Below, piece by piece: positions 16,141 through 62,547 of a stretch of DNA of 64,000 nucleotides (its first letter is position 1; every line of letters begins with the position of its first letter). The stretch covers positions 457,864 through 521,863 of the forward strand of contig JAQTTB010000001.1 of assembly GCA_028710985.1 (NCBI GenBank), in the 5' to 3' direction. Source of the stretch: Patescibacteria group bacterium. GTDB taxonomy: Bacteria > Patescibacteriota > Patescibacteriia > JAHJFT01. The notes beneath the pieces are model-generated. The model did not search any database. It was not told the origin of the DNA and worked only from the letters and a program-made list of their open reading frames with translations. Made by a program: the position numbers and the translations under genes.

Positions 16141-16743
16141 ATGGATAGCCAAACTCGAAAGCTCTCCAGAGGCGAGAAGTGGAGCTTATTTGTATTAAGC
16201 GCCGCGACTTTGTGTATCGTAATTTTGGCTTCATGGCAGATGAAAAATACGATTTTTTCACCGTTTGTCCAGACGCCAAGTGAGGATACGCGCGCTCTGT
16301 TTGATAATTCACTGCAGCTTGAGGAATTGCGCGGCAAGGACAGCGATAGCGATGGCTTAAGCGACTTTGACGAGCTCTATGTCCACAATACGAGTCCGTA
16401 TCTTCCGGATACTGATTCCGACGGTATGAGCGATTCCGCGGAAATCACTGCCGGTAAAGACCCAAACTGTCCCGAGGGCCAGGAATGCTATATTGACCAG
16501 ACCGGCGGCACCTCGACCGCGGCCGGAGAAACCGAAGAAGTGAATTTGACGGAAAGCGAAAAGGCCGATCTTATGCTCCAGCTTCCGGCCGATGAGATCC
16601 GCGAGCTTCTGAAAAATGCCGGCGTGCCCGAGGAAACGCTCAACCAGCTTACTGACGACGAACTCAAACAGATGGTTGCCGATGTTCTTGCCGAAGAGGG
16701 CGGCTCATTGCCGGCGACCGGCTCAACTTCAACCCAAGAGTAA
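16141..16743 (+). CDS. Membrane-anchored protein with thrombospondin-type-3-like Ca-binding repeats (DSDSDGLSDFDE, DTDSDGMSD)
   Basis: N-terminal TM helix and acidic D-x-D-x-D-G repeats. Confidence 0.5.
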   Translation: MDSQTRKLSRGEKWSLFVLSAATLCIVILASWQMKNTIFSPFVQTPSEDTRALFDNSLQLEELRGKDSDSDGLSDFDELYVHNTSPYLPDTDSDGMSDSAEITAGKDPNCPEGQECYIDQTGGTSTAAGETEEVNLTESEKADLMLQLPADEIRELLKNAGVPEETLNQLTDDELKQMVADVLAEEGGSLPATGSTSTQE

Positions 16744-16747
16744 ATTT

Positions 16748-19700
16748 ATGATGCGTTTAAAACAACAAACAATGCGGACAATCGTTGCGCTTGTTTGTTT
16801 TGTTTTTGTTTGCAATCTCCTGCTCGTGCCGATTCATTACGCGCGCGCTCAACTGGTAGTAACGGATCCGGTTACCGGCCAGGCAGTCACCATAAAAAAT
16901 GTAAAAGATTTTATAAAGACCCTGCTTGTCGGCGTGGCCGGCGTTGCCGTAATTAACGCAGCAAATTATTTCGCACAAAAGCTCGCCTACGACGCCGCCG
17001 TAGCTTTGGTTTCCGGCGGTAAGGGCCAGATGCCGCTTTTTTCCACCAAGGGCTGGGGCGATTATTTTAAAGACGCATCGCTCGGCGCGGTCGGCGAATT
17101 TGTGGGCACTTTGTCCGAAGGATTTGAGGGCCTAGATCTCTGTAATCCCGGTCCGCCCGGCCTTGTGGCAAAACTTCAGACCAGTTTGGTCAAACCATAT
17201 ATTCCGGTGGGCGAAGGCCCGGAGCCAAAATGCGAGTGGAGCAATATTTCCGAAAACTGGACCGAGTTTACCGAAGACTTTACCACCGGCGAGGTTCTTC
17301 AGCGCTCGGGCGTGATGTTTGAACCCGGCCAGTCGCCGCTTTCCATTACCCTTGAAGCCAGCCGCAATCTTTCGGTTCAGGTTTATGAAATGGAAAAATT
17401 AAAAACCCTGGAACGCGAGGAGGGGGAAGGATTTTTGGCCAAGACCGGCATTATTTCCGGCGAGGTCCAGACTCCAGCCCAGGTCATCGCCCAAAAAGCC
17501 AAAGACCTTTCAAAGAGCGGCGAAGAATCCCAGCAAACTAATGTCCAGATGATGGGTTCGGCGCTCGGCGCCGGCGCGACGCAGATTCTCACTTCCGCGC
17601 TTGGCACATTCGTGAATACCCTGGCCGGAAAATTATTGGAAAAAATATTTAACAAGGGTTTAATTAGTTTTCAGAAAAAGGGAAAAAATACCGGCGCACT
17701 CATTAATCCTGAATTTTCGCTCGTCGGCACGCGCGAGGTGGCGCAGGAGATGCAGTCCGATCTGATTACCCCGCCGATTAAAGAGGCCGAGGTTTTTGAT
17801 CAGGTGACTGATTTTTCGGTCTGCCCCTCCCAGTTCGCCAGCCCGAATAACTGCGTAATTGACCAGGGATTTTCCGAAGCCCTGCGGCGGGAACAATCCG
17901 GTACCCCGCTCTCGGTCAAAGAGGCGATTAATCAGGGCCTGCTCCGCGGCGACTGGCCGCTTATTTCCTCGTATGACCGCGCCCGCAACACGGATATTTT
18001 TTGCTACACCTACGGATATTGCTATTCAAATTTAGTCAAACTTCGCAAGGCGCGCATCGTCCCGATCGGTTGGGAAATTGCCGCGCAAAAAAGCGGCGCC
18101 TCGGCTTCGCAGATAACCTTGAGCCAGGCCATGGATGCTTTCTATGACTGCGGAACCGATGCCGATGGCCGGCCGGTTGTGGATTCCGAACATCCGTGGT
18201 GCCACCTCGTCGATCCAAACTGGATTATCAAATATCCGCTTACCCAGTGCCGCGCTTCGGTCTACGGTTCAACCCTGCTCACCGCCGAAAACAGCCTGCG
18301 TTCCGAAACCTGCGTTGATTCGCCGACTTGCATTGCGGTTGATGACGGCGGATCCTGTGTCGGGGGTTGGGGATACTGCACCCGCGAAAAAAATACCTGG
18401 CATTTTGACGGCGACCAGTGTCCGGCGCGTTACGAGTCCTGCATCGCGCTTGAAGACCGGAGCGGCAATCAGGTTTCGTATTTATTAAATACCGTAAATT
18501 ACGGCGCCTGCACTTCGGAAAATGTTGGCTGTCGCTGGTACGCGCGCGAAAAGGCCGGCGACAACTGGACCGCGACCGCAAGTTATAATTCCACGGATAA
18601 AACCATGGTCGCGACCGCGGGCGCCATTTATTTAAACAAAAACGCGGCCGAATGTTCGGCTTCGGACGCCGGCTGCACGGAAATGATCCGTGCCACGGCG
18701 ACCGGAGCGACTTTGAATATTCTGCCCAATCCGAGTTTTGAAACCGCGTCCGCCGAAAATCCGGCCATGCCCGAGAACTGGGTTGCCGCCCGCGATAATT
18801 CCAAATACACCAGCGCGGCAACTACCCTGGACGCCACGGGGGACAAATCTTACGACGGGGTCGCGGCGGTTTCGCCCGGCACCGGCTTAGCCGCCGAAGT
18901 CAAACTCAATGCTTCAAGATTTTACACATTCTCTTTTTACGCGCGGACTTCCAGCCGCGCCACGCTTCTCGCCGGTGTTTCAGTCCTGAAGAGCGATCGT
19001 GTCAAAGCCGATCTCACGCCATATTATTTTTCTGGAACCAATTGCACGCGCGGCACCCAATTTGGCGAAGGCGGGGTAAATGAATCAGTTTATTTTAATC
19101 AGATTGCACCGCCCACCGAATACGCGCGCTATTCCTGCACCTTTACCACTCCGGTTGCCGCGGCTTCGCCCAAGGGATATTTTATCGGCCAGATATTTCT
19201 CTATAGCCAGGACGGCACCTGGATTGACGCCGTCCAGCTTGAAGAATCCGAAACCGTAACCGCGTTTCATGAAGGGATTTCCAGCGGAGCCGGGAGTGTT
19301 TATCTTAAAAAACCGCCCGAATATCTGGGATGCACCGGCGCCTCAACCGATCCGGCCGAATGTTCCAATTATCTGCGCCAATGCCTGGCATCGGATGTCG
19401 GCTGTTCAATGTATTATCCAACAAACGGCGATCCGGCGCTTGCCGCGGTCGCGACCGGCGAGAATATTTGTCCGGCCGAATGCGTCGGCTACGACACCTT
19501 CCGCGAAGAGCCGAGTCAGTGGACCGCCGCGGCCAAATTCCCGCTTTACTTAATTCCGGATACCGCCGAGATGTGTGAAGCGAGTGTCGTGGGCTGCGAT
19601 GAATTTACCAACTTAGATGCCGCTGAAGCTGGTGGGGAATCCAAAAATTATTTCACTTCAATCCGCTCCTGCCAGAAGCCGGCCGCGGACAGCGAAACGT

Positions 19701-22700
19701 TTTATACCTGGGAGGGCTCGGACACCGCCGGCTATCAGCTCAAGACGTGGGTGCTCAAGGCGAGCGACAAGGACGCCGGCCCGTGTACCACGCTCGCGCC
19801 GGGCGGGACCTGTAATGATCCAGCCGTCGGCACCGCGGACTATGACGAGCGCGACTGCTCGGAAGATTTTAAAACCGACGCCAACTGCCGCGAATTTTAC
19901 AATACCGCCGGCGGAATTTTTTATCGCAATTATTCAGATACCATTATTTCCACCGATGAATGCTATCGCTACCGCAAAACCGAAGCAACCGGGGAGGCGG
20001 ATTGCGAATCAACCGGCGGCCAGTGGAGCGCGGCCGGAGAATGCATTTATCTGGGCTATCCGTCCGAGAGCCAGCGCTGCGGCGCCGAATCCGCGGGCTG
20101 CCGCGCCTACACCGGCCCGACGAGCCGCAATGTTGAGGAAGAATTTTTTGACGAATTTGAAAATAACACAACCCAGGATTGGCAGGGCGGGGCCGTGAGC
20201 ACCGAATCCGTCACGCTCGGCGGGCATTCGCTCAAAGCCGCGTCCGGGGCCGCGGTTTCCAAAACCTGGGAATTAACCGCGGGCGAAACTTATATTTTGA
20301 GTTTCTGGGCCAAGGGACAAGGCACGGTGGCCGCGCAAATTGACGGCGAGCCGCTCGGCAGCGTCGCCCTCGGTTCGGAATGGGCAAATTATCAGGTCGG
20401 GCCCCTGCTCATGAGTGAGGCGGGGATAGGTTCAGTGGTTAGCTTCAGCGGATTTGCGGTTGATTCGTATCTGGACAACATCCGGCTCACTCGCGTATCG
20501 GATCATCTTTATTTAATTCGCAACTCCTGGTATACGCCGATGGTGTGCGACATGAATAATCAGGGCGTCTACCTGCCGCGCGCCCAACTCGGTTGCCGCG
20601 CCTACACGGACAGCGAAAATCAGGAAAAATATTTTAAATCATTCGATCGCCTTTGCAGCGAAGGGGCGGTGGGCTGCGAAGCTTTTATTGATACTTACAA
20701 TTCCGCGTCAACCGCGAAACAGATATTCAATCAGGGAGAGGACGGCGCCGAAGTCACGGTGCCCGGCGACACGCTTTCATATTATGTATATGACGAGAAC
20801 ATGGCCTGCGGCGCCGACGCCAAAGGTTGCGAAGCGATGGGTCGCCCGATTTTGGATCAGGATGGTCATACCGTGCTCTCGTACGATGATGTATATCTCG
20901 TGAACGATCCGGAAAATTATTCCAACTCGCTCTGCCTCACCGAAGAAGCCTACTGCGACGAATTCAAGGGCGATACCGGAACTTATTATTTCAAACATCC
21001 GGAAGACAAAACCTGCGAATTTAAGGAAAAGGTGAAAATTGCCGGGCTGGAATATTCGGGTTGGTTCCGCACCGGCACCGAAGACCCGTGCTATGGGTCG
21101 TATCTCGGCGCCGGCAACTCGTACGGTATCTGGAAAAACGGCGACTCGGGCTATGACGCCTGGTACGGCAACTGCCCGGCCGACATGAGCACCTGCACCA
21201 AATTTACCGATCCAGCCGACACTTCGGCCGATGAGCCGCAGGGCAAATCATATTATTATTTGGATAACGACACGCTTGATACTAAGAGCTGCGCTGGTTC
21301 GGCCTCCAAAAGCGCGGGCTGCGCCTTATTTAACAGTACTTCAAAGTCAACCAAGACAGAAAATTCCTGGGCGACTTATCTCACGAGCGAGGACAATAAT
21401 TTCGCCGCTGTTGCCACAATCGATTGCCTCAAAAGCGATAGTCCGTATTGTACCAAGGTTTGCTTTGATAAAGAATTCGGCCCGGAAGCGTTTGTTCCGT
21501 ACCGGTTCGGCCATAACTGTCGCGATGCCGGCGACTGTTCGGGCTACAGGGGTTGCGGTGAGATTTCAAGTTTTGGCAGCAAATGGCGGCACTGGATTCC
21601 GGAACAGAATATTTATCAATACACCGGTTCGTGCGAGGCCGGTTCGGTTTGCGCGGCCGGCAATCCGGGCTGTACCGTCGGCGATCTTTGCGTGGATATG
21701 GCCAAAGAGCTCCTGCGCAATGATTCAAATGAATTATTGAAAGTCCGCCGCGACCGCGAATGCGGCGAGTGGCTGGCGTGCCGCAGTTCGGTTTCGGTCT
21801 GGGACAATGAAACGCAAAAATACAAAAAAATCTGCACCAGCCTCGGGCTTTGCGACGAGTTTGCCCCGGTCGGGGATTCCAGCGAGTGCGTTCATTTTAT
21901 TGAGAGCGAACACGCCGAAGACGTGCTTTCCGAAGCGCTTTACACCGCGCGCGATGTTTCCTGGGAAGGCCAGGATTATTCGGGCTACGCCATTCCGAAT
22001 TATTATTCCATTGACGAGCTTTCGCCCATTGATTTGAGCAGTATTGTCGCCGGTTCAAGCCTGCCGGATTTGCGCGTTGCTTATGTTGAAACCGGCTGCG
22101 GCGCCGGCGTGGCTACTGGCCAGACATGCGGAGACGCGAACGCGCTCGGCAACAAGGGTGTCTGCGTTGCCCAAAAATGCGTTTATGCCATCAACGGCGA
22201 AGCCCTGCCCACGGCCGGAACATCGGCGGAATTATATACGTCGCTTACCGCCGGGGAAAACAAATACCGCGTGGTCGGCCAGTCCTGCCGCGCTTATCCG
22301 GAAGAAGGCGCGCCGTTCCCCTCAAGCGTGGCCGAGTGGGAGAACGGAAAAATGACCACCATTGACCCCAACTTCAAACGCGCCAATATCTGCGAGCAGT
22401 CGATCTGGGAAGATCTGAACAGCGACGGCGTGCGCGATGAAAACGAAATCACGTATCAGGACTGCGAATGCGATTATCAAAAAGTTGAATTTGGAAACGG
22501 CGCGGTCACGAAATTTTATTCCACCAATGAAGTTAATATTCCCAAAGGCATCTGCCTCAATGGCCCGCGTTCCGGGCTTTCGTGCGTGCCGGGCGCGGAA
22601 TACGACGACACCCTGCCGGCCGATTCCGCGGATAATCAAAAAACCTGCGGCGCGATTACTTCGGGCGGCGCCTGCCAGGCGGTTGAGCGCGCCGACAAAT

Positions 22701-25582
22701 TCGTGGGCTGGCTCGGCCAGTGCCTGGAGCGCGATTTGCGCACGCCATTGAACGGCAGCACCGAAGATTTTGCCTGCCTGACCTGGTATCCGTCTTACAT
22801 TCTTTCCGGCGGACAGGATGTTTATAATCTTTTCCCCAATGCCGGATATAATCCGACCAACACCGGCCGCTACTGGTGCGCCGAGGCGCGGGGCATCCGC
22901 AATTCCATTGGACCGACTCGGGCTGGCGAAGATTATGAAGTCATAACGCGCGATAATATTGCCAGTACCACAAAGTGGACAAAAGATCCGCCGGGCGTAT
23001 TATTCCCCGGGGTGCTGTGCACTGGCGCTATTAATTGTCCGGATGCAACGGGCCAGGAAAAGTCCGTGTGCCACGACTTTGGTTCTTACAGCGCCTGTGC
23101 CACGGGTAAATTTTATGGCAGCTATACGGCTTCTGAAGATTCGGCCTGGAATCTTTTGGTCTATACGGCCGACACCAAGGATTATTCAGAAAGATTTTTG
23201 CCGGCAACACAATACGAAAATTATTATCTTGACGAAATCGTTGCCATTGAACTCGCGGTTGACGGCGCGCATAATCCCAAGTTGTGGCCGGATGGCCAAA
23301 ACAGTGATACTGAAGATTTTTACGAAGACGGAAACAATATATTAAGCCGCCAGAATGAAGTTGAATTGAAAAACGGATTCAAAGCCTGGGAAACAAGCTG
23401 GGGCATTCCCGAAGAAACAAAAATTCCGTCAAGCGCTCCGCCGATTCTCACGCAGGCCAATTATGCGTTTTCCGGAGAATATAAATATGAGCATGTAACC
23501 GAAGACGCTTCATGCGAAAATGATTACAGCGATTCAAAGAGCTATTTTGCCATTCGCGCCATCTTTGACGCAAACGGCAAATTCCGCGGATTTTGGACCA
23601 CAACCTGCAATGGCACAAGCAAGCCGCGCGCCTGGGTGAAATTTAAAGTCGTTTTTCACCTTGCGGAAAATTGCGAATCTGTCGCCCAGGTGGTAAAGGC
23701 GAGCGGAGAAAACAAGGCCTATACCGACCGGCTTTATCAGGCAACGAATTTTTTAATGATTGTTGGCAGCGAATATAAATATCCGCAGACTTTCGCGCCC
23801 TTTGGTTCGGCGCAAAGTTACGAGTCGCCGCTTGGCCAAAAATTGCCGTGGATTGTCGGCGATAATCGGAAAGACAAAAATTCTGTCGGTACGCCGGACT
23901 TGAGCCTGATTCCGGAAGATTACACTCTCGCCGGTTCATCCCTTGGTTGTAAGGGCGCATGCGCCAAAGAAGAACTCGATGATTTAAATTTTAATACTTT
24001 AACGCGCGCCCTGGGCAATCTTCAGCAGTTATTTACTGCGGTTTATAAAATATTTGAGTGGGAGCCGGGCTATAAACAGGGCAAATGCGAACCGTCCGGC
24101 GGCTGGTCGGAAGGAACGGGTTTCTATATTCCCTGCAATGGCGAGGGCAACACATGTGATAATGATCCGCCCGGTTCGTGCGTGCAGTCTCTTGAATGCG
24201 ATATCGGTCCGCTCGCCGGCGATCGAAATTGCGCAATAAATGATTATTGCCAGGGCGAGTCCGGATATTGCTATCCAAATCCAGACACCACTGTTTACGG
24301 CGATACCGGCGGCGGACGATATGGGGTGATTGAGGAAGGCGAAGGCATTTGCACCGGCAGCTTGCGCGGCAGCGCGCTGTGCGGCGATATTGAATACCCG
24401 GATGAGGGCACGAATAATTTTCCGTCTCCCGAGGGCACCATCAATTTAACCGTTGACGCCGAACGGGCCGGTGATGAATTCTGTCAGACTTCGGGGGTGT
24501 GTATTGATTGGCATATTAGCGATGGTCAGACAATTTATCAGTGCTATGGCGGGCTAAAACATGGCGAGTCATGCAGCGGACAAAGCGATTGCGGCATTAA
24601 TGCCATGAACGGCTTTTGCGACAGCGGTGTTTGCACGGGCGGCGGCTTTGACAGCATATCGGAAAAAGTTTTCTGTTCCGATAACTCGCAGTGCATAATT
24701 TCAAATGCCATGTGCGCGACAAATGTTTATCGCTGCAGCGACGGACTATTGTCTGGCGCCGAATGTGATCCGGGCTCAAGCATTTGCGGCCAGTCATTTT
24801 CTTGTACAGTAGACGCTGTTCCGGCAGAGCGTGACTTTTACGAAAAGAGCGTTCCGGCCTCTGTCTCCGACACGGCCGAAAGCCAGGGCGTTCCGCCGAC
24901 CGTCGCGGCCATTGATTTTACCAAATGCGATCAATCAACCGGCACCTGCCGCATTGCCAAGCTTAACGGTTTTGATGTGAACAACTGGTATTACGGCACC
25001 ATCACCGGCCAGGAACAGCTCAAGGCAACCATCCGCTTTTATGCCTGGGCCGACCATAATCAGATGCCAATTGTTTCGCGCACCGTGGACTGGGGAGACT
25101 CAAGTCCCAAAGACATGACCTCGGCGAGCAAATACAAAAACTATAAGCCTTATTGCGACAGTGATTCCCTGGAATGTTCGGACGCTCCGGGCATGACCTG
25201 CAAGACATCGAGCGACTGCCCGTCCGGCACCGGCACGTGCCAGCCGGATCTAAGCGGCGTGCCGCACTTTGGCAATGATGACAAAGCCTGCAGCGAGGGA
25301 TTTTTCCAGTTTGAACACACTTATCTTTGCGATGGCGGCGACGAGCTTGGTACTTGTCCGTTCAGCGGTTCGCCGGCTTCGTCAGACAGCATTCCGGCCA
25401 ATGGCTGCAAAACCGCGACTGCCTGTTATTACCGCCCGCGCGTCCAGGTTCAGGATAACTGGGGCTGGTGCAACGGCGACTGCAATGGATTGGGTGAGGG
25501 GTGCTATGAGGATGAATGCTTTATTACAAGGGATGATCCACATTGGACCGAGTTTGATGGCTACATCAAAATAAATAAATAA
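16748..25582 (+). CDS. Giant secreted cysteine-rich protein (2,944 aa), signal peptide, CBM-like NPSFE region
   Basis: Uninterrupted 8.8-kb ORF; start at the ATGATG 5 nt after the upstream stop; N-terminal hydrophobic signal (IVALVCFVFVCNLLLVPIHYARA); very high Cys content. Confidence 0.7.
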   Translation: MMRLKQQTMRTIVALVCFVFVCNLLLVPIHYARAQLVVTDPVTGQAVTIKNVKDFIKTLLVGVAGVAVINAANYFAQKLAYDAAVALVSGGKGQMPLFSTKGWGDYFKDASLGAVGEFVGTLSEGFEGLDLCNPGPPGLVAKLQTSLVKPYIPVGEGPEPKCEWSNISENWTEFTEDFTTGEVLQRSGVMFEPGQSPLSITLEASRNLSVQVYEMEKLKTLEREEGEGFLAKTGIISGEVQTPAQVIAQKAKDLSKSGEESQQTNVQMMGSALGAGATQILTSALGTFVNTLAGKLLEKIFNKGLISFQKKGKNTGALINPEFSLVGTREVAQEMQSDLITPPIKEAEVFDQVTDFSVCPSQFASPNNCVIDQGFSEALRREQSGTPLSVKEAINQGLLRGDWPLISSYDRARNTDIFCYTYGYCYSNLVKLRKARIVPIGWEIAAQKSGASASQITLSQAMDAFYDCGTDADGRPVVDSEHPWCHLVDPNWIIKYPLTQCRASVYGSTLLTAENSLRSETCVDSPTCIAVDDGGSCVGGWGYCTREKNTWHFDGDQCPARYESCIALEDRSGNQVSYLLNTVNYGACTSENVGCRWYAREKAGDNWTATASYNSTDKTMVATAGAIYLNKNAAECSASDAGCTEMIRATATGATLNILPNPSFETASAENPAMPENWVAARDNSKYTSAATTLDATGDKSYDGVAAVSPGTGLAAEVKLNASRFYTFSFYARTSSRATLLAGVSVLKSDRVKADLTPYYFSGTNCTRGTQFGEGGVNESVYFNQIAPPTEYARYSCTFTTPVAAASPKGYFIGQIFLYSQDGTWIDAVQLEESETVTAFHEGISSGAGSVYLKKPPEYLGCTGASTDPAECSNYLRQCLASDVGCSMYYPTNGDPALAAVATGENICPAECVGYDTFREEPSQWTAAAKFPLYLIPDTAEMCEASVVGCDEFTNLDAAEAGGESKNYFTSIRSCQKPAADSETFYTWEGSDTAGYQLKTWVLKASDKDAGPCTTLAPGGTCNDPAVGTADYDERDCSEDFKTDANCREFYNTAGGIFYRNYSDTIISTDECYRYRKTEATGEADCESTGGQWSAAGECIYLGYPSESQRCGAESAGCRAYTGPTSRNVEEEFFDEFENNTTQDWQGGAVSTESVTLGGHSLKAASGAAVSKTWELTAGETYILSFWAKGQGTVAAQIDGEPLGSVALGSEWANYQVGPLLMSEAGIGSVVSFSGFAVDSYLDNIRLTRVSDHLYLIRNSWYTPMVCDMNNQGVYLPRAQLGCRAYTDSENQEKYFKSFDRLCSEGAVGCEAFIDTYNSASTAKQIFNQGEDGAEVTVPGDTLSYYVYDENMACGADAKGCEAMGRPILDQDGHTVLSYDDVYLVNDPENYSNSLCLTEEAYCDEFKGDTGTYYFKHPEDKTCEFKEKVKIAGLEYSGWFRTGTEDPCYGSYLGAGNSYGIWKNGDSGYDAWYGNCPADMSTCTKFTDPADTSADEPQGKSYYYLDNDTLDTKSCAGSASKSAGCALFNSTSKSTKTENSWATYLTSEDNNFAAVATIDCLKSDSPYCTKVCFDKEFGPEAFVPYRFGHNCRDAGDCSGYRGCGEISSFGSKWRHWIPEQNIYQYTGSCEAGSVCAAGNPGCTVGDLCVDMAKELLRNDSNELLKVRRDRECGEWLACRSSVSVWDNETQKYKKICTSLGLCDEFAPVGDSSECVHFIESEHAEDVLSEALYTARDVSWEGQDYSGYAIPNYYSIDELSPIDLSSIVAGSSLPDLRVAYVETGCGAGVATGQTCGDANALGNKGVCVAQKCVYAINGEALPTAGTSAELYTSLTAGENKYRVVGQSCRAYPEEGAPFPSSVAEWENGKMTTIDPNFKRANICEQSIWEDLNSDGVRDENEITYQDCECDYQKVEFGNGAVTKFYSTNEVNIPKGICLNGPRSGLSCVPGAEYDDTLPADSADNQKTCGAITSGGACQAVERADKFVGWLGQCLERDLRTPLNGSTEDFACLTWYPSYILSGGQDVYNLFPNAGYNPTNTGRYWCAEARGIRNSIGPTRAGEDYEVITRDNIASTTKWTKDPPGVLFPGVLCTGAINCPDATGQEKSVCHDFGSYSACATGKFYGSYTASEDSAWNLLVYTADTKDYSERFLPATQYENYYLDEIVAIELAVDGAHNPKLWPDGQNSDTEDFYEDGNNILSRQNEVELKNGFKAWETSWGIPEETKIPSSAPPILTQANYAFSGEYKYEHVTEDASCENDYSDSKSYFAIRAIFDANGKFRGFWTTTCNGTSKPRAWVKFKVVFHLAENCESVAQVVKASGENKAYTDRLYQATNFLMIVGSEYKYPQTFAPFGSAQSYESPLGQKLPWIVGDNRKDKNSVGTPDLSLIPEDYTLAGSSLGCKGACAKEELDDLNFNTLTRALGNLQQLFTAVYKIFEWEPGYKQGKCEPSGGWSEGTGFYIPCNGEGNTCDNDPPGSCVQSLECDIGPLAGDRNCAINDYCQGESGYCYPNPDTTVYGDTGGGRYGVIEEGEGICTGSLRGSALCGDIEYPDEGTNNFPSPEGTINLTVDAERAGDEFCQTSGVCIDWHISDGQTIYQCYGGLKHGESCSGQSDCGINAMNGFCDSGVCTGGGFDSISEKVFCSDNSQCIISNAMCATNVYRCSDGLLSGAECDPGSSICGQSFSCTVDAVPAERDFYEKSVPASVSDTAESQGVPPTVAAIDFTKCDQSTGTCRIAKLNGFDVNNWYYGTITGQEQLKATIRFYAWADHNQMPIVSRTVDWGDSSPKDMTSASKYKNYKPYCDSDSLECSDAPGMTCKTSSDCPSGTGTCQPDLSGVPHFGNDDKACSEGFFQFEHTYLCDGGDELGTCPFSGSPASSDSIPANGCKTATACYYRPRVQVQDNWGWCNGDCNGLGEGCYEDECFITRDDPHWTEFDGYIKINK

Positions 25583-26421: not shown

Positions 26422-27009
26422 TTATTTACACGGATCAAGAATGTTTTTCCAATTTTTGGGATTATTTTTGATGTAATTCGTAATGCGTCGTAAATCCCAT
26501 GCGTCGCGGACGATGTGGTCATAATATGAACGTTGCCATTGAAAATATTCATCCTCGTTTTGATTCGCGATTCGGGTAACCGCGGATTTAAATTCATGGA
26601 TAATTTTTGGCAACAACATTTTATCCCGTTGTACGTCGCGTTGTACGTCGCGTTGTAGGGGTCGCATATATGCGACCCCTACGTCCGTCCATTGCCCGCC
26701 ATGCGAATCGTCCACCCCGTCCGTCCATTGCCCGCCGTACGCATTCCGAATAAATATTAATCCATGAAAATGGTCGGGCATAACAATGTATTGCCCCAAA
26801 TCAATATTCGGAAAATGAATTGGTAAATAATTCCAACATCGGTCCGCGATTTCACCAATCGCTGAACGCCGCATTTCATTTTTTACAATATTTCCAAAAA
26901 AACATTTTTTTCCATCGGTACATATTGTTACATAATATATACTCGGGCGGGAATAATCGCGTTTTTGATATCGGTTTCGTTTTCGCGCGCGTTGATTCAT
27001 GTTAATCAT
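26422..27009 (-). CDS. IS200/IS605-family HUH (Y1) transposase / REP-associated tyrosine transposase (RAYT)-like
   Basis: YYVTICT..., HUH motif MPDHFHGLI, C-terminal WQRSYYDHIVRD; gene contains tandem GTTGTACGTCGC repeats and a 28-bp perfect palindrome GTAGGGGTCGCATATATGCGACCCCTAC. Confidence 0.65.
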   Translation of the reverse strand: MINMNQRARKRNRYQKRDYSRPSIYYVTICTDGKKCFFGNIVKNEMRRSAIGEIADRCWNYLPIHFPNIDLGQYIVMPDHFHGLIFIRNAYGGQWTDGVDDSHGGQWTDVGVAYMRPLQRDVQRDVQRDKMLLPKIIHEFKSAVTRIANQNEDEYFQWQRSYYDHIVRDAWDLRRITNYIKNNPKNWKNILDPCK

Positions 27010-32588: not shown

Positions 32589-32729
32589 AATCATGGAACA
32601 ATCTAAAATCTCAAATCTTAGATCTCAAATCTAAAGATATTAGATATAAGATATATTTTTGAGATTTGAGATTTTATTTATAAGATACTTGTGGTATAAT
32701 ATTTGCGTTTAAGAATTAATATATAAAGT

Positions 32730-33065: not shown

Positions 33066-34197
33066 ATGAAAGAGCTTATCCGCGAACTTGAAGATTTCAC
33101 TGCGCAAATCTCCAAGACATGGGGGTTACTTTGACCTCGACCGCCTGAAATCAGAAATCAAGGCGTTAGAGTCCGAGGCGAGCCAGCCGGATTTTTGGGC
33201 TGATCCGGGGCACGCCAAAGCGGTTTCGCAAAAGCTCAACAGCCTCAAAGAAGAGGTTGAGACTTGGGATAAAATAGAGAAAGAAGCGCGCGAGCTTCTT
33301 TCTCTTTGTAATTTAGCGGAAAGCCAGGGGGATGAAAGTTTGTCCGCTGAAGCGTCGGGAAAATTTGCTGAACTCAAAAAACGCTACGAGCGATTAGAAT
33401 TTTATCTTCTTTTCGGTGGAAAGTACGATCGCGCGAACGCCATTGTGGCCATTCATGCCGGCACTGGCGGCCGCGAGGCTCAGGACTGGGCAGATATGCT
33501 GCTCCGCATGTTTTCGCGTTTCTGTGAGCGTCGCCGCTGGGGAGCGCGCATCCTTGATGAATCGCGCGGCGTTGAGGGTGGTCTCAAGAGCATTACCCTC
33601 GCCGTCGAGGGCGCCTGGGCTTACGGATATTTAAAATCCGAAGCCGGCGTCCATCGTCTGGTGCGCATTTCGCCGTTTGACGCCGAAAAGATGCGCCACA
33701 CTTCGTTCGCTCTGGTTGAAGTTTTGCCCGAGCTTCCGGAAGGTGTGGAGATCGCGATTGATCCGAGCGATTTGCGCATTGATACATTCTGCGCGTCCGG
33801 GCACGGCGGTCAGTCGGTCAATACGACCTACTCTGCCGTGCGCATCACGCATCTGCCGACCAAGATTTCGGTTTCATGTCAGAACGAACGATCCCAGCAG
33901 CAGAATCGCGAAACCGCCATGAAAATTCTCAAAGCAAAGCTCCATCAACTCGAAGAAGAAAAAATGCGCCGCGAGAAAGCCGAAATCCGCGGCGAATACG
34001 CGGCCGCCGAGTGGGGCAATCAGATTCGGAGCTATGTGCTTCAGCCGTACCATCTAGTCAAAGACCACCGCACCAAATATGAGACCGCGGATACCGAAGC
34101 CGTGCTCAACGGAGAATTGGAGCAGTTTATGGAGGCCTATTTGCGACATTTGGCTAGAAAGAGAGATTTACGCGCAAGAGCGAATCAGGAATTATGA
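33066..34197 (+). CDS. prfB: Peptide chain release factor 2 with programmed +1 frameshift (frame-0 ATG 33066, shift at CTT-TGA-C 33129-33135)
   Basis: Frame 0: MKELIRELEDFTAQISKTWGLL*; +1 frame continues DLDRLKSEIKAL...; internal SD-like GGGGG 3 nt upstream of CTTTGAC; SPF/GGQ regions (GHGGQSVNTT) downstream. Confidence 0.9.
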
Positions 34198-34253
34198 ATC
34201 AGGAATCATGAATCTTTTTAATACCCTAATTCCTGATTCCTAATTCTTGATTC
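34182..34253. repeat. REP-like inverted repeat GAATCAGGAATTATGAATCAGGAATCATGAATC ... GATTCCTAATTCTTGATTC
   Basis: Starts within the prfB stop codon; same family as 1471-1525 and 6541-6608. Confidence 0.5.
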
Positions 34254-38709: not shown

Positions 38710-40521
38710 ATGGACGCACTGACCACAACCCGCTATCTTCCGAGATCGGTAAAAACATATTTGGGTTCGGCTGAAGTGACGGATATCAATATTGATATCA
38801 AAAAAAAGTTTGATTTGCGGGAAAGGGAACTTGATATTCTCTTTGAACTCACCTGGGATATTCTGGAAGGTCGCCGCGCGCCGCGCGCCCTGGCTTACGA
38901 GCTCAAGGCGCAGATAAAATGGCAGGAAAAAAAAGCCGCTGAAGTTGCGCTGGAAATCCTTGGACGAAAACTTTTGCCCCTTTCCAATCTTATCCCCGGC
39001 ATTCCGGAAGCGATTAAAGATCTCGGCGCTGATCCGGCCAAGTATCCGCAGAAAAAAATCACGTCCGATCAGACGACCCTGCCGGTTTTTGTGGATGAGA
39101 TGATCCGCGATCTCGGCATCCAGCTCGCCGACAAATTTTTGAAACACCGGCTTGAGAATGTTGCCGAAGCAAAAATCAAAGGAGTGCGTGATGATTTTGA
39201 AACAAAAGAAAGAATGGTCCGTGGAATAAAAATCGGTGGGCTCGAGCTCGCCCCGACACAGGCTGACCAAATTATCGCCTACATCGAATCTGCGAAGAAA
39301 ACCATACAAATCGTTGACCGCCCATCCGCTCCGACAGCGGTTGGGGGAACGGCTCCAGCCGTAGCGATTCCGCTGTCAAGGATGCCGGCCGAGTCCGAAG
39401 TGCCGGAAGAAATCACGAGACATGAAACCGGAACCGCCGCGCCTTTCGCCATGCGCCCCGAGGATGTCGCTGAAATCCACGCCGAGCGGGGCCGGGAAAT
39501 CTCGGATGCCGTTTTGCCGGAGTACGAACGAGTAGATAAAGATATTATAAAAGATTCAGGATTCAGTTTTTCCGATCCGGATATGCAAAAGCGTTTTGAA
39601 AACACGGTTCGCGCGCGCGTGCGTGATGTGCGCGACGAACTGGAGACAAAAAATATACTGACCCGCGGGCCCAAAGAGGGCGGACTCGGCTTGCCTAAAG
39701 AAAAATCCGACCGCCTCATCGCTCTCATCAATCAAAAAGTCGGACCCCTTCGCCTGAAACTCGCGAAAATCGAAGAGCAAAAAAAGGCTGAACATCTCGT
39801 GAGAGAAAAACGAAATCGGGAAATCGGCCGCGAGAGGGAAGAGGAGAACTTGAATCGCCGCTACGCCAAACTTACCGGACGAATGCCGAGCTCGATGCCC
39901 AGTGAAGAAAAAAAACCGGAACGAACCCTGCCCTTAAAAGACCATATTATTAAGCCGAGCGCTCCGGTGATAAAACCGGTCGCCCAAGTTTCGGTCGTGA
40001 CAGCCGTGATTCCGCAAGAGCCGGGATTACCGATGACGATTGTGCCGGTCCCGATCGCGATCGGGACGCCGGTCCGCCCGGCATCTCGTCCGGAATCGCT
40101 AAAGCCCAAGGTTCGCGTCTCGCCGCCGAGTATTCCGGCGCAGACGTCGCAAACCGGCCGGCCGCGCGTTGAAGAAATAAAGTTTTCGCGCAGGCTGTTC
40201 GGGCCGATTGAGGAATTGCGCGAAATGAAGTTTGAAGATTTTCGCCGCCTGTCGCGCGAACCGCGGGAACGCGCCATTAAGATAAAGGACAAGATAGATC
40301 TCCTGGGCGAAGAATCATTTGAGAAAAAAATGCAGGGCATCGCCGCGTGGCAAGAGAGCCCGATTAATAAACTGTATCTGAATTTAATACAGGAAGCGTT
40401 CCAGACCGGCAAGAACATTGAGACAATTACGCGCGAACGTGAAGCCGCCGGCCGTTCGACGCTTTCATGGGACGAATTCCAGTCAATTATTGAGCTAAAT
40501 CAAAATTTAGGTAAAATTTAA
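38710..40521 (+). CDS. Hypothetical charged/helical protein (603 aa) within the T4SS-like operon
   Basis: No TM; K/E/R-rich. Confidence 0.45.
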   Translation: MDALTTTRYLPRSVKTYLGSAEVTDINIDIKKKFDLRERELDILFELTWDILEGRRAPRALAYELKAQIKWQEKKAAEVALEILGRKLLPLSNLIPGIPEAIKDLGADPAKYPQKKITSDQTTLPVFVDEMIRDLGIQLADKFLKHRLENVAEAKIKGVRDDFETKERMVRGIKIGGLELAPTQADQIIAYIESAKKTIQIVDRPSAPTAVGGTAPAVAIPLSRMPAESEVPEEITRHETGTAAPFAMRPEDVAEIHAERGREISDAVLPEYERVDKDIIKDSGFSFSDPDMQKRFENTVRARVRDVRDELETKNILTRGPKEGGLGLPKEKSDRLIALINQKVGPLRLKLAKIEEQKKAEHLVREKRNREIGREREEENLNRRYAKLTGRMPSSMPSEEKKPERTLPLKDHIIKPSAPVIKPVAQVSVVTAVIPQEPGLPMTIVPVPIAIGTPVRPASRPESLKPKVRVSPPSIPAQTSQTGRPRVEEIKFSRRLFGPIEELREMKFEDFRRLSREPRERAIKIKDKIDLLGEESFEKKMQGIAAWQESPINKLYLNLIQEAFQTGKNIETITREREAAGRSTLSWDEFQSIIELNQNLGKI

Positions 40522-40961
40522 TGCCGGAAAAATTTGTAGTGCCGCAATTCATTGACGTGGAAGATAAGATATTTGGGCCGATCACGACTCGCCAGTTTGT
40601 AATTTTGCTCGTGGATGGATTGTTCGTTTTTATCGCGTTTAAATTATTGGAGAAGATTTTATTCATTCCGGCGGCTATTTTGCTCCTCGGAGCCGGCGGC
40701 TTGCTTGCTTTTATAAAAGTGAACGGCATGCCATTTCATTTTTTTCTTCTGAACATCATTCAGACAATGAAGCGTCCGTCTCTCCGCGTTTGGGATAAAA
40801 CGCCTAGCAACACCGAACTGCGCGCGTACATCAGCAAGCCTGAAGTCAAAGCCGCGCCCGTTCCTCCCAAGAAAGAGCCATTAACAACAAGCCGCCTGTC
40901 CGAACTTTCGCTCATCGTTAATACAGGCGGTTTATACAAACCCGAAGAATATGAGCACTAA
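40521..40961 (+). CDS. PrgI/VirB3-like small membrane protein
   Basis: MPEKFVVPQFIDVEDKIFGPITTRQFVILLVDGLFVFIAF... matches the PrgI-family N-terminal pattern; sits immediately upstream of VirB4. Confidence 0.45.
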   Translation: MPEKFVVPQFIDVEDKIFGPITTRQFVILLVDGLFVFIAFKLLEKILFIPAAILLLGAGGLLAFIKVNGMPFHFFLLNIIQTMKRPSLRVWDKTPSNTELRAYISKPEVKAAPVPPKKEPLTTSRLSELSLIVNTGGLYKPEEYEH

Positions 40962-41622
40962 AAAAATTGTCAGACCCGGCCAACCAACTCAGCGTTACAT
41001 GGACATCGCAGAAATCCGCGAGGATGTGGTGATAATGAAGGACGGCACACTGCGCGCCGTTATTCTGGTCTCAAGTATCAATTTCGCGCTGAAGTCGGTG
41101 GATGAGCAGGAGGCGATTATTTCCGCCTACATGCAGCTTTTGAATTCGCTAGAACATCCTTTGCAGATTGTAATTCAGTCGCGTCGTATGAATATTGAAA
41201 AATATCTTGACGCCCTGAAGGAAGAGGAAAAAAATCAGAAAAACGATCTTTTGAGCGCGCAGATTTCCGATTATCGCAGTTTTATCAACCAGTTGGTTGA
41301 GCTTGGCGAGATCATGAGCAAGAAATTTTTTGTTACCGTGCCGTACGACCCAATGTCGGATAAGCAGAGAGGTTTTTTCTCGCGGATAAAAGAAATTTTT
41401 TCACCAGCCGTAAGTCTCAAATTGAGCGGCCAGAAATTTATTGAGCGCCGCAAGGAGTTGATGATGCGGGTGGAGCATATCATAGGCGCCCTACAGAGTA
41501 TCGGGCTCACCACCGCGCTTCTTGATACCCAGAGTTTGATTGAACTTTATTACAGTGTTTACAATCCCGAAGTTTACGAAAGCCAGAAGGTCAAGGATTT
41601 AAGCAAAATACAAATAGAATAA
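40951..41622 (+). CDS. VirB4/TraC-family ATPase, N-terminal segment encoded as a separate ORF
   Basis: QRYMDIAEIREDVVIMKDGTLRAVILVSSINFALKSVDEQEAIISAYMQLLNSL aligns by pattern with the VirB4 N-terminus (LPY...VLLEDGS...DGV.FEL); ends with a TAATAA double stop. Confidence 0.6.
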   Translation: MSTKKIVRPGQPTQRYMDIAEIREDVVIMKDGTLRAVILVSSINFALKSVDEQEAIISAYMQLLNSLEHPLQIVIQSRRMNIEKYLDALKEEEKNQKNDLLSAQISDYRSFINQLVELGEIMSKKFFVTVPYDPMSDKQRGFFSRIKEIFSPAVSLKLSGQKFIERRKELMMRVEHIIGALQSIGLTTALLDTQSLIELYYSVYNPEVYESQKVKDLSKIQIE

Positions 41623-41626
41623 TAAT

Positions 41627-43579
41627 ATGCCATTCCGACCAAAAGAAGCCGTTGCTCCTGAAGCCAAAACCGGCGCGGTTGCGCCGACCGGCCGCATCGT
41701 GCGGCGCGAGGCCGAGGCGCGCGCCGAGGCCGAGCGAGAACGCATCGTACTTGAAGAAGAGCGCATTTATCGCCGCGGTGTTGTTTCCATCCGCGACCTG
41801 ATCGCGCCGGCCGCTTTTGAAGTAAAACCGAACTATCTCCGGCTCGGCGACAGCTTTTGCCGCACGATTTTTATTGTCACTTATCCGCGCTATGTTTCGG
41901 TTGGATGGGCGACGCCGGTTATCAACTATAATCACACCCTGGATATCGCCATGTTTTTCTATCCAGTCAAGGCGCCGATAATTTTAAAACAGCTCAAGAA
42001 TAAAGTCGGCGTTCTGGAGGCCCAGATCATGGCCGATTCGGAAAAAGGCGCTCCTCGCGATCCGATTCGCGAAACCGCACTCCGCGACATTGAACAGCTT
42101 CGCGACGACCTGACGCAGGGGATTGAGCATTTTTTTCAATTCGCTTTGTACATTACGATTTACGCGAAAGATGTTACGGAACTGGATAAGATATCAACCG
42201 ATATCGAAACCATCTTCGGTTCAAAATTGATTTATTCCAAGCGCGTTCTTTATCAGTCCGAGCAGGGCTTTAATTCCACTGTGCCGCTCGCGAACGACGA
42301 GCTCATGATTACCTTCAATATGAACACCTCGCCGATTGCTTCGTCGTTCCCGTTCACTTCGGCCGAGCTTACTTCGGACAACGGCATACTCTACGGAATA
42401 AACCGCCACAACAACAGCCTGATTCTCTTTGACCGTTTCTCCATGCCGAACGCCAACATGGTTGTTTTTGCCACTTCCGGCGCCGGCAAGAGTTATGCCG
42501 TAAAACTGGAAATCTTGCGCAGCCTGATGCTTGGCACGGATGTTCTCGTCATTGATCCGGAAATGGAATACAAGCACCTTTCCGACGCGGTCGGCGGCAC
42601 CTACATCAATATTTCCCTGGCTTCGGAAAGCAAGATTAATCCGTTCGATCTGCCGCGGCCCATGGGCGAGGATATCAGCACCGAGGATATTATCCGGAGC
42701 GCCGTAATTACTCTCAAGGGTTTGCTCCGCATCATGCTCGGCAAGCTCACTACGGCCGAGGATTCGCTTTTGGATCGCGCGCTTCTTGAAACCTATGCTA
42801 AGCGCGATATTACGCCAAGTTCCGATCTTTCTACCGTCGAGCCGCCGATTATGCAGGATTTGCAGGAAGTGCTCGAGGGCATGGAAGGTACCGGCGATTT
42901 GGTTGTCCGGCTCAAGAAATTCACTGACGGCACATTTGCCGGTCTCTTGAACTCGCCGACCACGGTCACTATGAAAGCCCAGCTCGTGGTCTTCAGCGTG
43001 CGCGATCTTGAGGACGAGCTCCGTCCGATTGCTATCTATACCATCATCAACTACATTTGGAATGTCGTGCGCTCGGAGAGCAAAAAACGCATTCTCACGA
43101 TTGACGAAGCCTGGTGGCTGATGATGCACGAGGACAGCGCAAAATTTATTTTCGCCTTGGTCAAACGCTGCCGGAAATACTATCTCGGCATTACCACCAT
43201 CACGCAGGATGTTAACGATTTTTTGTCCAATCCGTACGGCCGCTCTATTGTCACTAACTCCTCAATGCAGATTCTGATGAAACAGTCGCCGGCCGCGGTT
43301 GATTTGGTGCAAAAAACTTTTCTTCTCACCGAGGGGGAGAAATATCTTCTTCTTGAGTCCGCGGTCGGAGAGGGGATTTTCTTCGCCGGCACAAAGCACG
43401 CGGCGATCAAGGTGGTTGCTTCGTATACCGAGGACCAGCTCATTACCACCGACCCGCGCCAGCTCTTGGAAATAGAAGAATCAAAAAAGCAATTCGCCGA
43501 AGAGGTGCTCGGTCAGTCCGAAGCCCTGCCTGCCGGTAGGCAGGGCGCTTCCGGGGAACCCCCAGCAATAAATATCTAA
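41627..43579 (+). CDS. VirB4/TraC-family type IV secretion ATPase (middle and ATPase domains)
   Basis: IAPAAFEVKPNYLRLGDSFCRTIFIVTYPRYVSVGW; Walker A FATSGAGKS; Walker B ILTIDEAWWLM; C-terminus carries the palindrome insert (EALPAGRQGAS). Confidence 0.8.
   Translation: MPFRPKEAVAPEAKTGAVAPTGRIVRREAEARAEAERERIVLEEERIYRRGVVSIRDLIAPAAFEVKPNYLRLGDSFCRTIFIVTYPRYVSVGWATPVINYNHTLDIAMFFYPVKAPIILKQLKNKVGVLEAQIMADSEKGAPRDPIRETALRDIEQLRDDLTQGIEHFFQFALYITIYAKDVTELDKISTDIETIFGSKLIYSKRVLYQSEQGFNSTVPLANDELMITFNMNTSPIASSFPFTSAELTSDNGILYGINRHNNSLILFDRFSMPNANMVVFATSGAGKSYAVKLEILRSLMLGTDVLVIDPEMEYKHLSDAVGGTYINISLASESKINPFDLPRPMGEDISTEDIIRSAVITLKGLLRIMLGKLTTAEDSLLDRALLETYAKRDITPSSDLSTVEPPIMQDLQEVLEGMEGTGDLVVRLKKFTDGTFAGLLNSPTTVTMKAQLVVFSVRDLEDELRPIAIYTIINYIWNVVRSESKKRILTIDEAWWLMMHEDSAKFIFALVKRCRKYYLGITTITQDVNDFLSNPYGRSIVTNSSMQILMKQSPAAVDLVQKTFLLTEGEKYLLLESAVGEGIFFAGTKHAAIKVVASYTEDQLITTDPRQLLEIEESKKQFAEEVLGQSEALPAGRQGASGEPPAINI
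43526..43545. repeat. Palindrome-family copy 3, CCTGCCTGCCGGTAGGCAGG, in-frame inside the VirB4 CDS
   Basis: Read directly; the same 24-mer is present in the clpC-like gene in the same gene-relative orientation. Confidence 0.9.
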
Positions 43580-54896: not shown

Positions 54897-56249
54897 ATGG
54901 GCAAGATAAATGAAGGAATTTTCAAGGCTTATGACATCCGCGGCGTTTTTGGGCAGGATTTTGACACTGAAACCGCAAAACGCGTTGGCCGGGCAATGGT
55001 TAAATTCACCGGCGCCAAAACCGTGGTTGTCGGCCGGGATATGCGCAAGTCCAGCCCGGAACTTTGTCGGGCGGTGATTGACGGCATTATCTCATCCGGC
55101 GCGGATGTGGTTAATATCGGCGAATGCTCAACCCCGACTTTTAATTTTGCCCTGGCCGAATATGATCTCCACGATGCCGGCATCATGATCACCGCTTCCC
55201 ACAATCCGGCGAAATATAACGGATTCAAGCTTTGTTACGGCGATTCTCTGCCCATCGGCAAGGGTTCGGGCATGGATGAAATTAAAGAACTTGTCATGCG
55301 CGGCGGGTTTGAGGACCAGCCGGCCGGAAATGTCGTTGAATCGCCGATTACCGAGGAATATATTAAAAAGATATTTTCGTTCGTCAATGTTGATAAAATC
55401 AAACCTTTGAAAATCGTGATTGACGCGGGCAACGGCATGGCTGGGCCGATTCTTAAAAAAATTTTTAAACGCCTGCCGCAGGTTGAAGTGACGCCAATGT
55501 TTTTTGAACCGGACGGAACATTTCCCAATCATGAAGCAAATCCGATCAAAGAGGAAAATCTTCGCGACCTCAAAGAGAAGGTGAAAGAAATCGCACCCGA
55601 TCTCGGCATTGCCTTTGACGGCGATTGCGACCGCGTCGGATTCGTGGACGAACGCGGTGAAACCATATCCGGTGATTTTATCACCGCGCTTCTCGCCAAA
55701 GAAATTCTAAAAAAATATCCGGGCGCCATTATACATTATGATCTCCGTTCAAGCTGGGCCGTCCGGGATACGATTTTGGAAAACGGCGGCAAGCCGGAGA
55801 TGTGCATGGTCGGCCACGCGTTAATCAAAAAACTCATGCGCCAGACCGGCGCGGTTTTCGCGGGCGAGCTCTCCAGCCATTTTTATTTTAAAGATTTTTA
55901 CGGCGTGGAATCCGGCGATCTTACGATGCTCTATATTCTGACTTTGCTTTCAGGAGAGGGTAAAAATATATCCGAACTCGTTGCGCCGCTTAAAAAATAT
56001 TTTCATTCCGGAGAAATAAATTTTGAAGTGGATGACAAAGAGGGCAGGATGCGCGAACTGGAAGAAAAATATTCGTCCGAGGCCAAAGATGTTTCTCACA
56101 TTGACGGCATCCGTCTTGAATTTGAAGACTGGTGGTTCAATGTCCGCGCTTCCAACACCGAGCCCCTTCTGCGCCTCAATCTTGAGGCCAAGACAAAAGA
56201 GCTTATGGAAGAGAAGCGGGATGAGATAAGCAAAATTCTGAATTCTTAA
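54897..56249 (+). CDS. Phosphoglucomutase/phosphomannomutase family protein (alpha-D-phosphohexomutase)
   Basis: Active-site TASHNPAKYNGFK; metal-binding DGDCDR; GELSSH sugar-binding loop. Confidence 0.85.
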   Translation: MGKINEGIFKAYDIRGVFGQDFDTETAKRVGRAMVKFTGAKTVVVGRDMRKSSPELCRAVIDGIISSGADVVNIGECSTPTFNFALAEYDLHDAGIMITASHNPAKYNGFKLCYGDSLPIGKGSGMDEIKELVMRGGFEDQPAGNVVESPITEEYIKKIFSFVNVDKIKPLKIVIDAGNGMAGPILKKIFKRLPQVEVTPMFFEPDGTFPNHEANPIKEENLRDLKEKVKEIAPDLGIAFDGDCDRVGFVDERGETISGDFITALLAKEILKKYPGAIIHYDLRSSWAVRDTILENGGKPEMCMVGHALIKKLMRQTGAVFAGELSSHFYFKDFYGVESGDLTMLYILTLLSGEGKNISELVAPLKKYFHSGEINFEVDDKEGRMRELEEKYSSEAKDVSHIDGIRLEFEDWWFNVRASNTEPLLRLNLEAKTKELMEEKRDEISKILNS

Positions 56250-56309
56250 TTCAGGAAAGGCGAATAATTTAGACATTTTAAGGATATTATTGTAGGATAC
56301 ATTTATATT

Positions 56310-62542: not shown

Positions 62543-62547
62543 TCAAA

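Follow-up and report, generated by a model that had tools for sequence, protein, structure and literature searches.

Inverted arrays of heptanucleotide repeats at gene 3' ends in a Patescibacteria genome

A stretch of 64,000 nucleotides from the genome of a Patescibacteria group bacterium (GenBank assembly GCA_028710985.1, contig JAQTTB010000001.1, positions 457,864 to 521,863 of the forward strand; hereafter the window) carries repeats at 1471-1525, 6541-6608 and 34182-34253, the last of which lies at the end of prfB. The original prediction, made from the sequence alone, had described them as repetitive extragenic palindromic (REP)-like elements built from 9-11-nt units and possibly mobilised by a co-resident gene resembling REP-associated tyrosine transposases (RAYT). 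The repeats are present at all three places and do constitute a dispersed, intergenic and hairpin-capable family located at gene 3' ends. However, their true unit is a heptamer repeated in tandem, GAATCAK (GAATCAG or GAATCAT), with GAATTAx variants, and this heptamer is the sole sequence common to the three loci. We consider that these repeats are probably heptanucleotide simple sequence repeat (SSR) arrays of the same type as the short tandemly repeated repetitive (STRR) sequences of cyanobacteria and the GGGAATC repeats of Xanthomonas. The STRR heptanucleotides of cyanobacteria were reportedly described by Mazel et al. in 1990.

Heptamer arrays of the window

The heptamer is strongly over-represented in the window. 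With up to two mismatches, GAATCAGGAATC has 27 matches, 20 of them within the three loci, versus 7.5 +/- 2.8 expected, and none of 100 shuffles reaches 27. In the same way, seven period-7 runs (at least 16 self-matches out of 21) were found versus zero to four for the other periods from 4 to 12, while 100 first-order Markov simulations gave a mean of 0.11 period-7 runs and a maximum of one. At every locus, Tandem Repeats Finder (TRF) detects 3.6-7.9 copies of a period-7 repeat. Furthermore, over the arrays, the window shows 100% identity with six Logan contigs that were assembled independently from three SRA runs, so that the arrays are not an assembly artefact. A scan of metagenomes with a unique 20-mer located upstream of the prfB array returned no match. 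A chance similarity could be considered for a motif this short in AT-rich intergenic DNA, but the shuffles, the simulations and the identical independent assemblies make its probability practically negligible.

Copy 3 overlaps the end of prfB (all features are described on the + strand unless stated otherwise). Its left arm (34182-34216) is made of five units, GAATCAG GAATTAT GAATCAG GAATCAT GAATCtt, and covers the last five prfB codons (N-Q-E-L encoded), with the TGA stop (34195-34197) in the second unit. A loop of 11 nt (TTTAATACCCT, 34217-34227), unrelated to the loops of copies 1 and 2, separates it from the right arm (34228-34253), which contains four inverted units, AATTC CTGATTC CTAATTC TTGATTC. 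The arms pair over 25 nt with 92% complementarity, and the minimum free energy of the fold (34182-34253) is -32.6 kcal/mol (z -5.64). The identity of the host gene is supported by PCRF and RF-1 domains and by a match to TIGR00020 at 470 bits, its closest named relatives, from Uhrbacteria or Patescibacteria, sharing ~61-64% identity. In this gene (33067-34197), the ATG at 33067 is the true start, and the sequence CTT TGA C (33129-33135) is a programmed +1 frameshift site conserved in three relatives (L123, L371 and L374). A 369-aa open reading frame (ORF) and the database protein P0001 begin at an upstream TTG and are extensions of the downstream prfB frame.

Copy 2 follows a gene encoding a class I S-adenosylmethionine (SAM) methyltransferase, whose TGA stop (6540-6542) overlaps its first unit; the gene end at 6542 matches the called gene. 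The left arm (6541-6575) consists of five units, GAATCAT GAATCAG GAATCAT GAATTAA GAATATC, and is separated by a GC-rich spacer of 15 nt from a right arm (6591-6604) of two units, CTGATTC CCGATTC. The fold (6541-6606) has a z of -0.69 on the + strand and of -2.88 on the - strand. Copy 1 starts 6 nt past the CCA that terminates a duplicated 3' half of tRNA-Leu. Two units, GAATTAG GAATAAG (1475-1488), are followed by a 7-nt loop, between 1488 and 1496, and by four opposite units, CTGATTC CTGATTC ATGATTC CTAATTC (1496-1523), and the fold (1471-1525) has a z of -2.67.

Each locus therefore contains two oppositely oriented arrays, in agreement with the inverted arms that had been proposed, but the numbers of units in the arms are unequal (2/4, 5/2 and 5/4 for copies 1, 2 and 3) and the loops are unrelated. 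The long hairpins that had been predicted vary in strength, copy 3 having a strong one, copy 1 a moderate one and copy 2, on the + strand, a weak one. As to the overlap with a TGA stop codon, announced for three genes, it is found for prfB and the methyltransferase but not at the third locus, where copy 1 follows a tRNA-Leu 3' fragment.

The window also contains inverted arrays of other heptamers. Element B (32596-32690), in which AATCTMA / AGATATW units face TGAGATT units (z -3.11), lies 64 nt past the groEL stop, downstream of a separate GC hairpin. Element C (62540-62650), made of AGTYAAA / TTTRACT arrays (-39.4 kcal/mol, z -6.08), spans the entire gap between pheS and pheT, from the pheS TAG (62540-62542), where it starts, to a point 3 nt short of the pheT ATG (62654). 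Both were also detected by TRF. Besides these elements, three units, AATTCTG AATTCTT AATTCAG (56234-56254), overlap the TAA stop (56247-56249) of the ORF 54897-56249 and may represent a proto-array; the same segment can also be read as a palindrome of 7 bp around a 3-nt loop. The right arm of element B includes a sigma-70-like match, TTGAGA-16-TAAGAT, upstream of a DUF4870 gene. An exact look-up of the GroEL of the window retrieved no record.

All five elements (the three GAATCAK copies, B and C) are inverted pairs located between co-oriented genes, with an array GC content of 31-42% and loops of 7-22 nt. Because of this location, the arrays are probably transcribed with the upstream gene. In three of the five hairpins (prfB, methyltransferase and pheS), the array begins at or inside the upstream stop codon, i.e., at a distance of 0 nt with overlap, this distance being 6 nt for the tRNA fragment and 64 nt for groEL. 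The next downstream start is found 40-55 nt from the array, or 3 nt in the case of pheT. Altogether, ~74 kb of this genome hold the three GAATCAK elements and one mini-array, none being located in the 9.6 kb beyond the window.

REP elements and the RAYT-like gene

REPs are unique palindromes of 20-40 nt with a conserved GTAG-type head, which are alike over their full length and flank their RAYT gene; when located at 3' ends, they can stabilise the upstream mRNA. Like the REP elements of E. coli and Pseudomonas, which form bacterial interspersed mosaic elements (BIMEs) or REP doublets forming hairpins (REPINs) and are associated with RAYTs, the arrays of the window are intergenic, hairpin-forming, multi-copy and often at 3' ends, as expected if they were REPs. 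However, the REP palindrome, the GTAG head, the full-length likeness and the flanking RAYT gene are all missing: nothing beyond the 7-nt tandem unit is common to the copies, and both the sizes of the arms and the loops differ from one copy to another.

The RAYT-like gene does exist. This ORF of the - strand (26422-27009) resembles Y1 transposases, with HUH (PDHFHGL) and Tyr (SYYDHIVRD) motifs and a score of 24.5 against a threshold of 23 for Pfam Y1_Tnp. Furthermore, it is missing at the syntenic position in the relative L123, which is itself devoid of arrays, so that gene and arrays could both be gains specific to the lineage. Nevertheless, its score with the NCBIfam family REP_Tyr_transpos (NF047646) is 46.4 bits, below the cutoff of 80, with an alignment limited to the C-terminal half. 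Neither heptamer arrays nor shared palindromes flank it, the nearest array, at 32596, being more than 5 kb away. In addition, tblastn on 1.84 Mb (8-kb loci around ~240 GAATCAK arrays found elsewhere) did not detect any RAYT-like homologue. Lastly, arrays of many other units are found in the same genomes, which a sequence-specific Y1 enzyme would not explain. It is therefore very improbable that the repeats are REP or REPIN elements mobilised by this gene, and this interpretation is rejected.

Between its HUH and Tyr motifs, the RAYT-like ORF bears an in-frame insert of ~45 aa composed of tandem duplications (36 nt x2 and 12 nt x3). A perfect 28-nt palindrome, GTAGGGGTCGCATATATGCGACCCCTAC (26655-26682), which starts with GTAG like REP heads, is found in this insert. 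It was considered as a candidate true REP and discarded, as it occurs once in the window. MITEs (miniature inverted-repeat transposable elements) were discarded as well for the heptamer arrays, whose internal sequences (CAAGACC, ATCGCGCATCGCACGTCC, TTTTTAATACCC) are unrelated and which have no flanking direct repeats.

Comparison with related genomes

The prfB junction was compared with that of five related lineages (L123, L370, L371-373 and L374), whose prfB is ~75% identical. Four lineages have a prfB gene terminated by GCC AAY AAG GAG GAW TAA, with the ATG of the following epimerase gene 2-3 nt further, which implies that the Shine-Dalgarno sequence of the latter is located inside prfB. In the fifth one, L374, prfB ends with GCT AAT CGA GAT TAA and is followed by a 59-nt spacer. 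None of the five junctions carries an array, and no period-7 run was found in ~57 kb of these relatives. In the window, prfB ends with GCG AAT CAG GAA TTA TGA, the tight junction of the relatives is lost and 111 nt now separate prfB from the epimerase gene. Comparison of these codons therefore indicates that the array replaced the end of the protein (ANQEL instead of ANKEE) and that the stop codon comes from it.

The methyltransferase junction can be compared with that of another relative, L377, in which the gene ends with AAA AAA TCA TAA, followed by 31 nt; this junction has no array and the 13.6 kb examined have no period-7 run. The methyltransferase of the window, which stops in the first unit of the array, is one residue shorter than that of L377. 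The absence of arrays from the orthologous junctions, and more generally from ~71 kb of relatives whose proteins are ~75% identical, indicates that the arrays of the window are recent gains. The native ends of both genes include a 6-mer of the unit, AGGAAT for prfB and AATCAT for the methyltransferase, which suggests that the arrays could have been seeded at sequences already similar to the unit.

Heptamer arrays in other genomes and in viruses

The prfB loci of 80 members of the candidate phyla radiation (CPR) (L378-L457; 539 kb), picked regardless of repeats, were searched for tandem runs. Period 7 is the commonest, with 61 runs versus 1-31 for other periods, and 27 of the 80 loci have at least one period-7 run; periods 8 and 9 have 31 and 20 runs. 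In seven CPR lineages, an array is present within ~40 nt of the prfB stop, each time with a different unit (AACTCGT, AATGTCT, AATATAG, GAATCAT, AAAGTTA, ACACATA or AAAGTYC), and the stop itself lies inside a periodic tract in L388, L393, L423, L426 and L440. Two lineages even translate the array as a C-terminal tail of RF2, L440 (1287-1319, ...RHITHIT*) and L457 (~5089-5140, ...SSKSKVSAKG*). Downstream of its prfB stop, L457 also carries longer repeats, of ~42 nt, each with a GC hairpin. A specific association with prfB was considered and discarded: the estimated frequencies are ~0.11 array per prfB junction and ~0.08 per other junction, and this closeness indicates that heptamer arrays are general rather than specific to prfB.

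GAATCAK arrays are found at at least 120 genome loci belonging to more than 15 phyla. The matches listed include CPR, Acidobacteriota, Anaerolineae, Bacteroidota, Verrucomicrobiota, Cyanobacteria, Proteobacteria and others; neither the genome of the window nor its close relatives appear among them. An inverted partner is present within 150 nt in 23 of 120 listed loci, leading to the same type of stem-loop fold. Around the listed loci, 228 period-7 runs were detected versus at most 15 for any other period, and about half of them have other units. GAATCAK arrays are also present in at least 120 viral contigs of IMG/VR, versus 22, 36 and 61 for three permuted heptamers of the same composition. 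GAATCAK is thus a favoured heptamer unit, not a unique one, with at least 2-5 times as many contigs as the permuted controls.

The position of the arrays relative to genes was also considered in these other genomes. With crude ORF calls, the 3'-end bias is ambiguous, with counts of 31 versus 27, but convergent gaps outnumber divergent ones (26 versus 11). Stop codons lie at the edge of the arrays in 36-53% of cases versus 8-11% after random placement, but this test is confounded, as AT-rich arrays end any open frame; in viral contigs, it did not show any enrichment. A selection of the units for stop codons in all frames was discarded, since 68 of 100 arrays of other units include a stop on either strand, versus 66.6 from shuffled units.

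This broad distribution raises the question of whether the GAATC-core heptamer could be a sequence-specific micro-element that spreads horizontally, or a protein-binding array, recognised or generated by a conserved factor. Such a proposal would fit the counts obtained in viral contigs and across more than 15 phyla, versus 22-61 contigs for the controls, as well as the one-position difference between AGGAATC and the GGGAATC unit of Xanthomonas (PMC4692102). It would also fit the Alistipes metagenome-assembled genome L062, where such arrays form the ends of a repeated element whose internal hairpins are conserved. However, the genomes carrying GAATCAK also carry arrays of many unrelated heptamers, and even the permuted heptamers occur far more often than chance would predict. 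Moreover, GAATCAK exceeds these controls by a few-fold only, which is a minimum of unknown size, and neither shared flanks, nor target-site duplications, nor an associated gene were found. A micro-element of this kind is therefore improbable.

In L062, three copies of the repeated element occur in 8 kb (530-670, 1745-1910 and 5060-5200), with inverted GAATCAT arrays as termini. Their interiors share the GC-rich hairpins GGGGYGTGCTTCGCACG and CTGCGGC...GCCGCAG, so that this heptamer is employed there in a MITE-like manner.

Closest known heptamer systems

Heptamers constitute the most abundant class of long SSRs, according to work cited in PMC4679880. The closest described system is that of the (GGGANTN)n arrays of Xanthomonas, with ~185 arrays per genome, 89-93% of them intergenic (Rehm et al. 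2015, PMC4692102). Their mean distance is 28 nt to the upstream ORF and 160 nt to the downstream one, 70-75 convergent inverted pairs have been counted, most arrays are transcribed and they vary between species (PMC4692102). No function was found for them, and polymerase slippage was proposed as their origin (PMC4692102).

The arrays of the window share with them 7-nt units with variant positions (between 2 and over 20 per array in Xanthomonas), an intergenic location nearer the end of the upstream ORF, frequent convergent inverted pairs able to fold, and differences in array length or sequence between related genomes. A GGAATC core is also common to both, the AGGAATC unit of the window differing at one position from GGGAATC. 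By contrast, the units of the window lack G-tracts: the four tracts of at least three G that characterise G-quadruplex heptamers are absent, as neither GAATCAG nor GAATCAT contains any, and there is no potential for G-quadruplex or i-motif formation. The host also differs, being a CPR bacterium with a small genome in which the arrays invade the last codons of genes and supply the stop, and in which all five elements are inverted.

STRR heptanucleotides are known in Calothrix and Nostoc, according to the citations made of them in PMC4692102, and heptamer repeats of Nostoc have been described more recently (bioRxiv 10.1101/2022.06.06.494920). As in the window, a single genome carries tandem arrays of several heptamer families in its non-coding DNA, and regulatory effects have been suggested. 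However, the unit sequences are different, and the Nostoc cases studied lie upstream of starts or promoters and not at stop codons. Another heptamer, TAACTGA, forms direct repeats in Beggiatoaceae, Cyanobacteria and Bacteroidetes (MacGregor 2015, PMC4679880). Here again, one heptamer is repeated in tandem in the intergenic DNA of scattered lineages, with no mobilising mechanism known, but almost all repeats are direct and just upstream of starts, with one set out of 170 inverted, whereas those of the window are inverted and at 3' ends. A literature search for the GAATCAK unit sequence in bacteria found nothing. The assignment to the STRR/Xanthomonas type is based on head-to-tail 7-nt units with variants, on the proximity to an upstream 3' end, on inverted pairs and on variation between relatives, all of which are found in the arrays of the window.

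Possible origin of the arrays

We propose a recent origin of the arrays in this CPR lineage, through slippage-type tandem duplication of 7-nt units, which would have occurred at gene 3' junctions that already resembled the unit. Their persistence at such junctions could be explained if duplicating 7 nt at or after the stop codon leaves the protein unchanged, the stop supplied by the array being in this case a by-product. The in-frame tandem duplications of the RAYT-like ORF (12 nt x3 and 36 nt x2) were counted in support, as the sign of a genome prone to slippage. We regard an origin by slippage-type duplication at stop-proximal sequences, together with the class assignment, as likely.

Several observations weigh against this scenario. 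There is no polymorphism of unit number or length among the six contigs, which come from three runs on the same population, so that ongoing slippage is not demonstrated. The resemblance of the native ends to the unit was noticed post hoc and concerns two junctions only. A purely local and independent seeding is not easily reconciled with the recurrence of GAATCAK at three loci, in distant phyla and in excess in IMG/VR. Concerning the inverted organisation, the order of the units is not mirrored between arms beyond chance (0.878 versus 0.872, p = 0.24). Arms kept complementary at variant positions, whether by covariation or by a recent inverted duplication, were rejected on this basis, and this result supports neither selected pairing nor an origin by inverted duplication. 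Lastly, the role of the hairpins at the RNA level is only inferred.

A broader proposal would be that the hairpins with a GAATC core ([A/G]GGAATC, ATGAATC) belong to one pan-bacterial and phage-borne family, with a sequence-biased spread independent of any transposase, for which copying seeded by microhomology at stop-codon-proximal sites could be a candidate process. In CPR bacteria, with their small genomes, such hairpins would serve to break translational coupling and to remodel operon ends. This proposal is speculative and appears unlikely.

Possible effects of the hairpins

Two opposed arrays would allow DNA or the transcript to fold into a long A/U-rich stem-loop, and their most probable effect would be a structural one. 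At the 3' end of an mRNA or between cistrons, a stem of 15-25 bp could uncouple genes that formerly abutted, as are prfB and the epimerase gene in relatives, and may also act as a barrier to exonucleases or as a site for RNase III. We advance only tentatively the idea that the transcribed stem-loop is such an intercistronic uncoupler, 3' exonuclease barrier or RNase III site, rather than a terminator. A putative role as mRNA stabiliser or processing site, one of the functions initially envisaged, is possible.

The other function initially envisaged, that of terminator, has less in its favour. Rho-independent terminators or leaky attenuators ending the transcription of prfB, of the methyltransferase gene and of the tRNA would be consistent with hairpins at 3' ends of co-oriented genes, with the stable stem at 34182 and with the 111-nt separation between prfB and the epimerase gene, which could create an independent transcription unit. 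However, the stems are A/U-rich, the loops measure 7-22 nt and no U-tract follows. A terminator scan does not pick any array, although it finds canonical sites at 30011, 3701, 5650 and 2377, and the genome thus uses canonical terminators with a GC stem and a T-run elsewhere. In addition, element C separates the genes of the two subunits of a single enzyme, pheS and pheT, and a distinct GC hairpin stands between groEL and element B. A function as canonical terminators, or as attenuators, is therefore unlikely. Above the gathering threshold, Rfam recognises only tRNAs in the window; below it, generic hairpins are found (miRNA precursors; sX8 with 25.9 bits versus 50).

Neighbouring genes

Upstream of copy 1, the sequence runs from an intact tRNA-Leu(GAG) gene (1051-1136) through a small GIY-YIG ORF (from the ATG at 1145 to 1416) to a GC hairpin (1392-1413). 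A second tRNA-Leu 3' half (1414-1468) begins in the anticodon loop, and its T-arm and acceptor stem differ from those of the intact gene. This region looks like a GIY-YIG cassette of ~330 bp inserted into the tRNA gene and displacing a 3' half; Rfam did not find any intron in it (1051-1468). Another small GIY-YIG gene is located just upstream of the window (L375, 2930-3217).

A giant ORF of 2,988 aa (16616-25582), for which no notable Pfam domain was recorded, has a conserved position, as L123 and L377 carry ORFs of ~2,900 aa there. Downstream of two large unannotated ORFs, a cluster (40521-43579) encodes PrgI, a TraC-like protein and a DUF87/TraG (VirB4-like) protein. This cluster is syntenic in L123 and L371 and resembles a type IV secretion-like system of Patescibacteria.

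Conclusions

The arrays of the window are a real but ordinary class of element, found in a new host phylum and belonging to an already known kind. Their recognition corrects a tempting mis-annotation, in which a heptanucleotide SSR is taken for a REP/RAYT system. The inverted heptamer array at gene 3' ends, a little-studied architecture known in Xanthomonas and cyanobacteria, is now also found in CPR/Patescibacteria and in many other phyla. As the version of the window has no G-tracts, this inverted architecture is independent of G-quadruplex potential. These loci would provide clean test cases for the function of heptamer arrays, which is a modest question. Furthermore, the comparison with relatives shows how such arrays remodel compact genomes, in which last codons are overwritten, a stop codon is donated and translationally coupled genes are separated.

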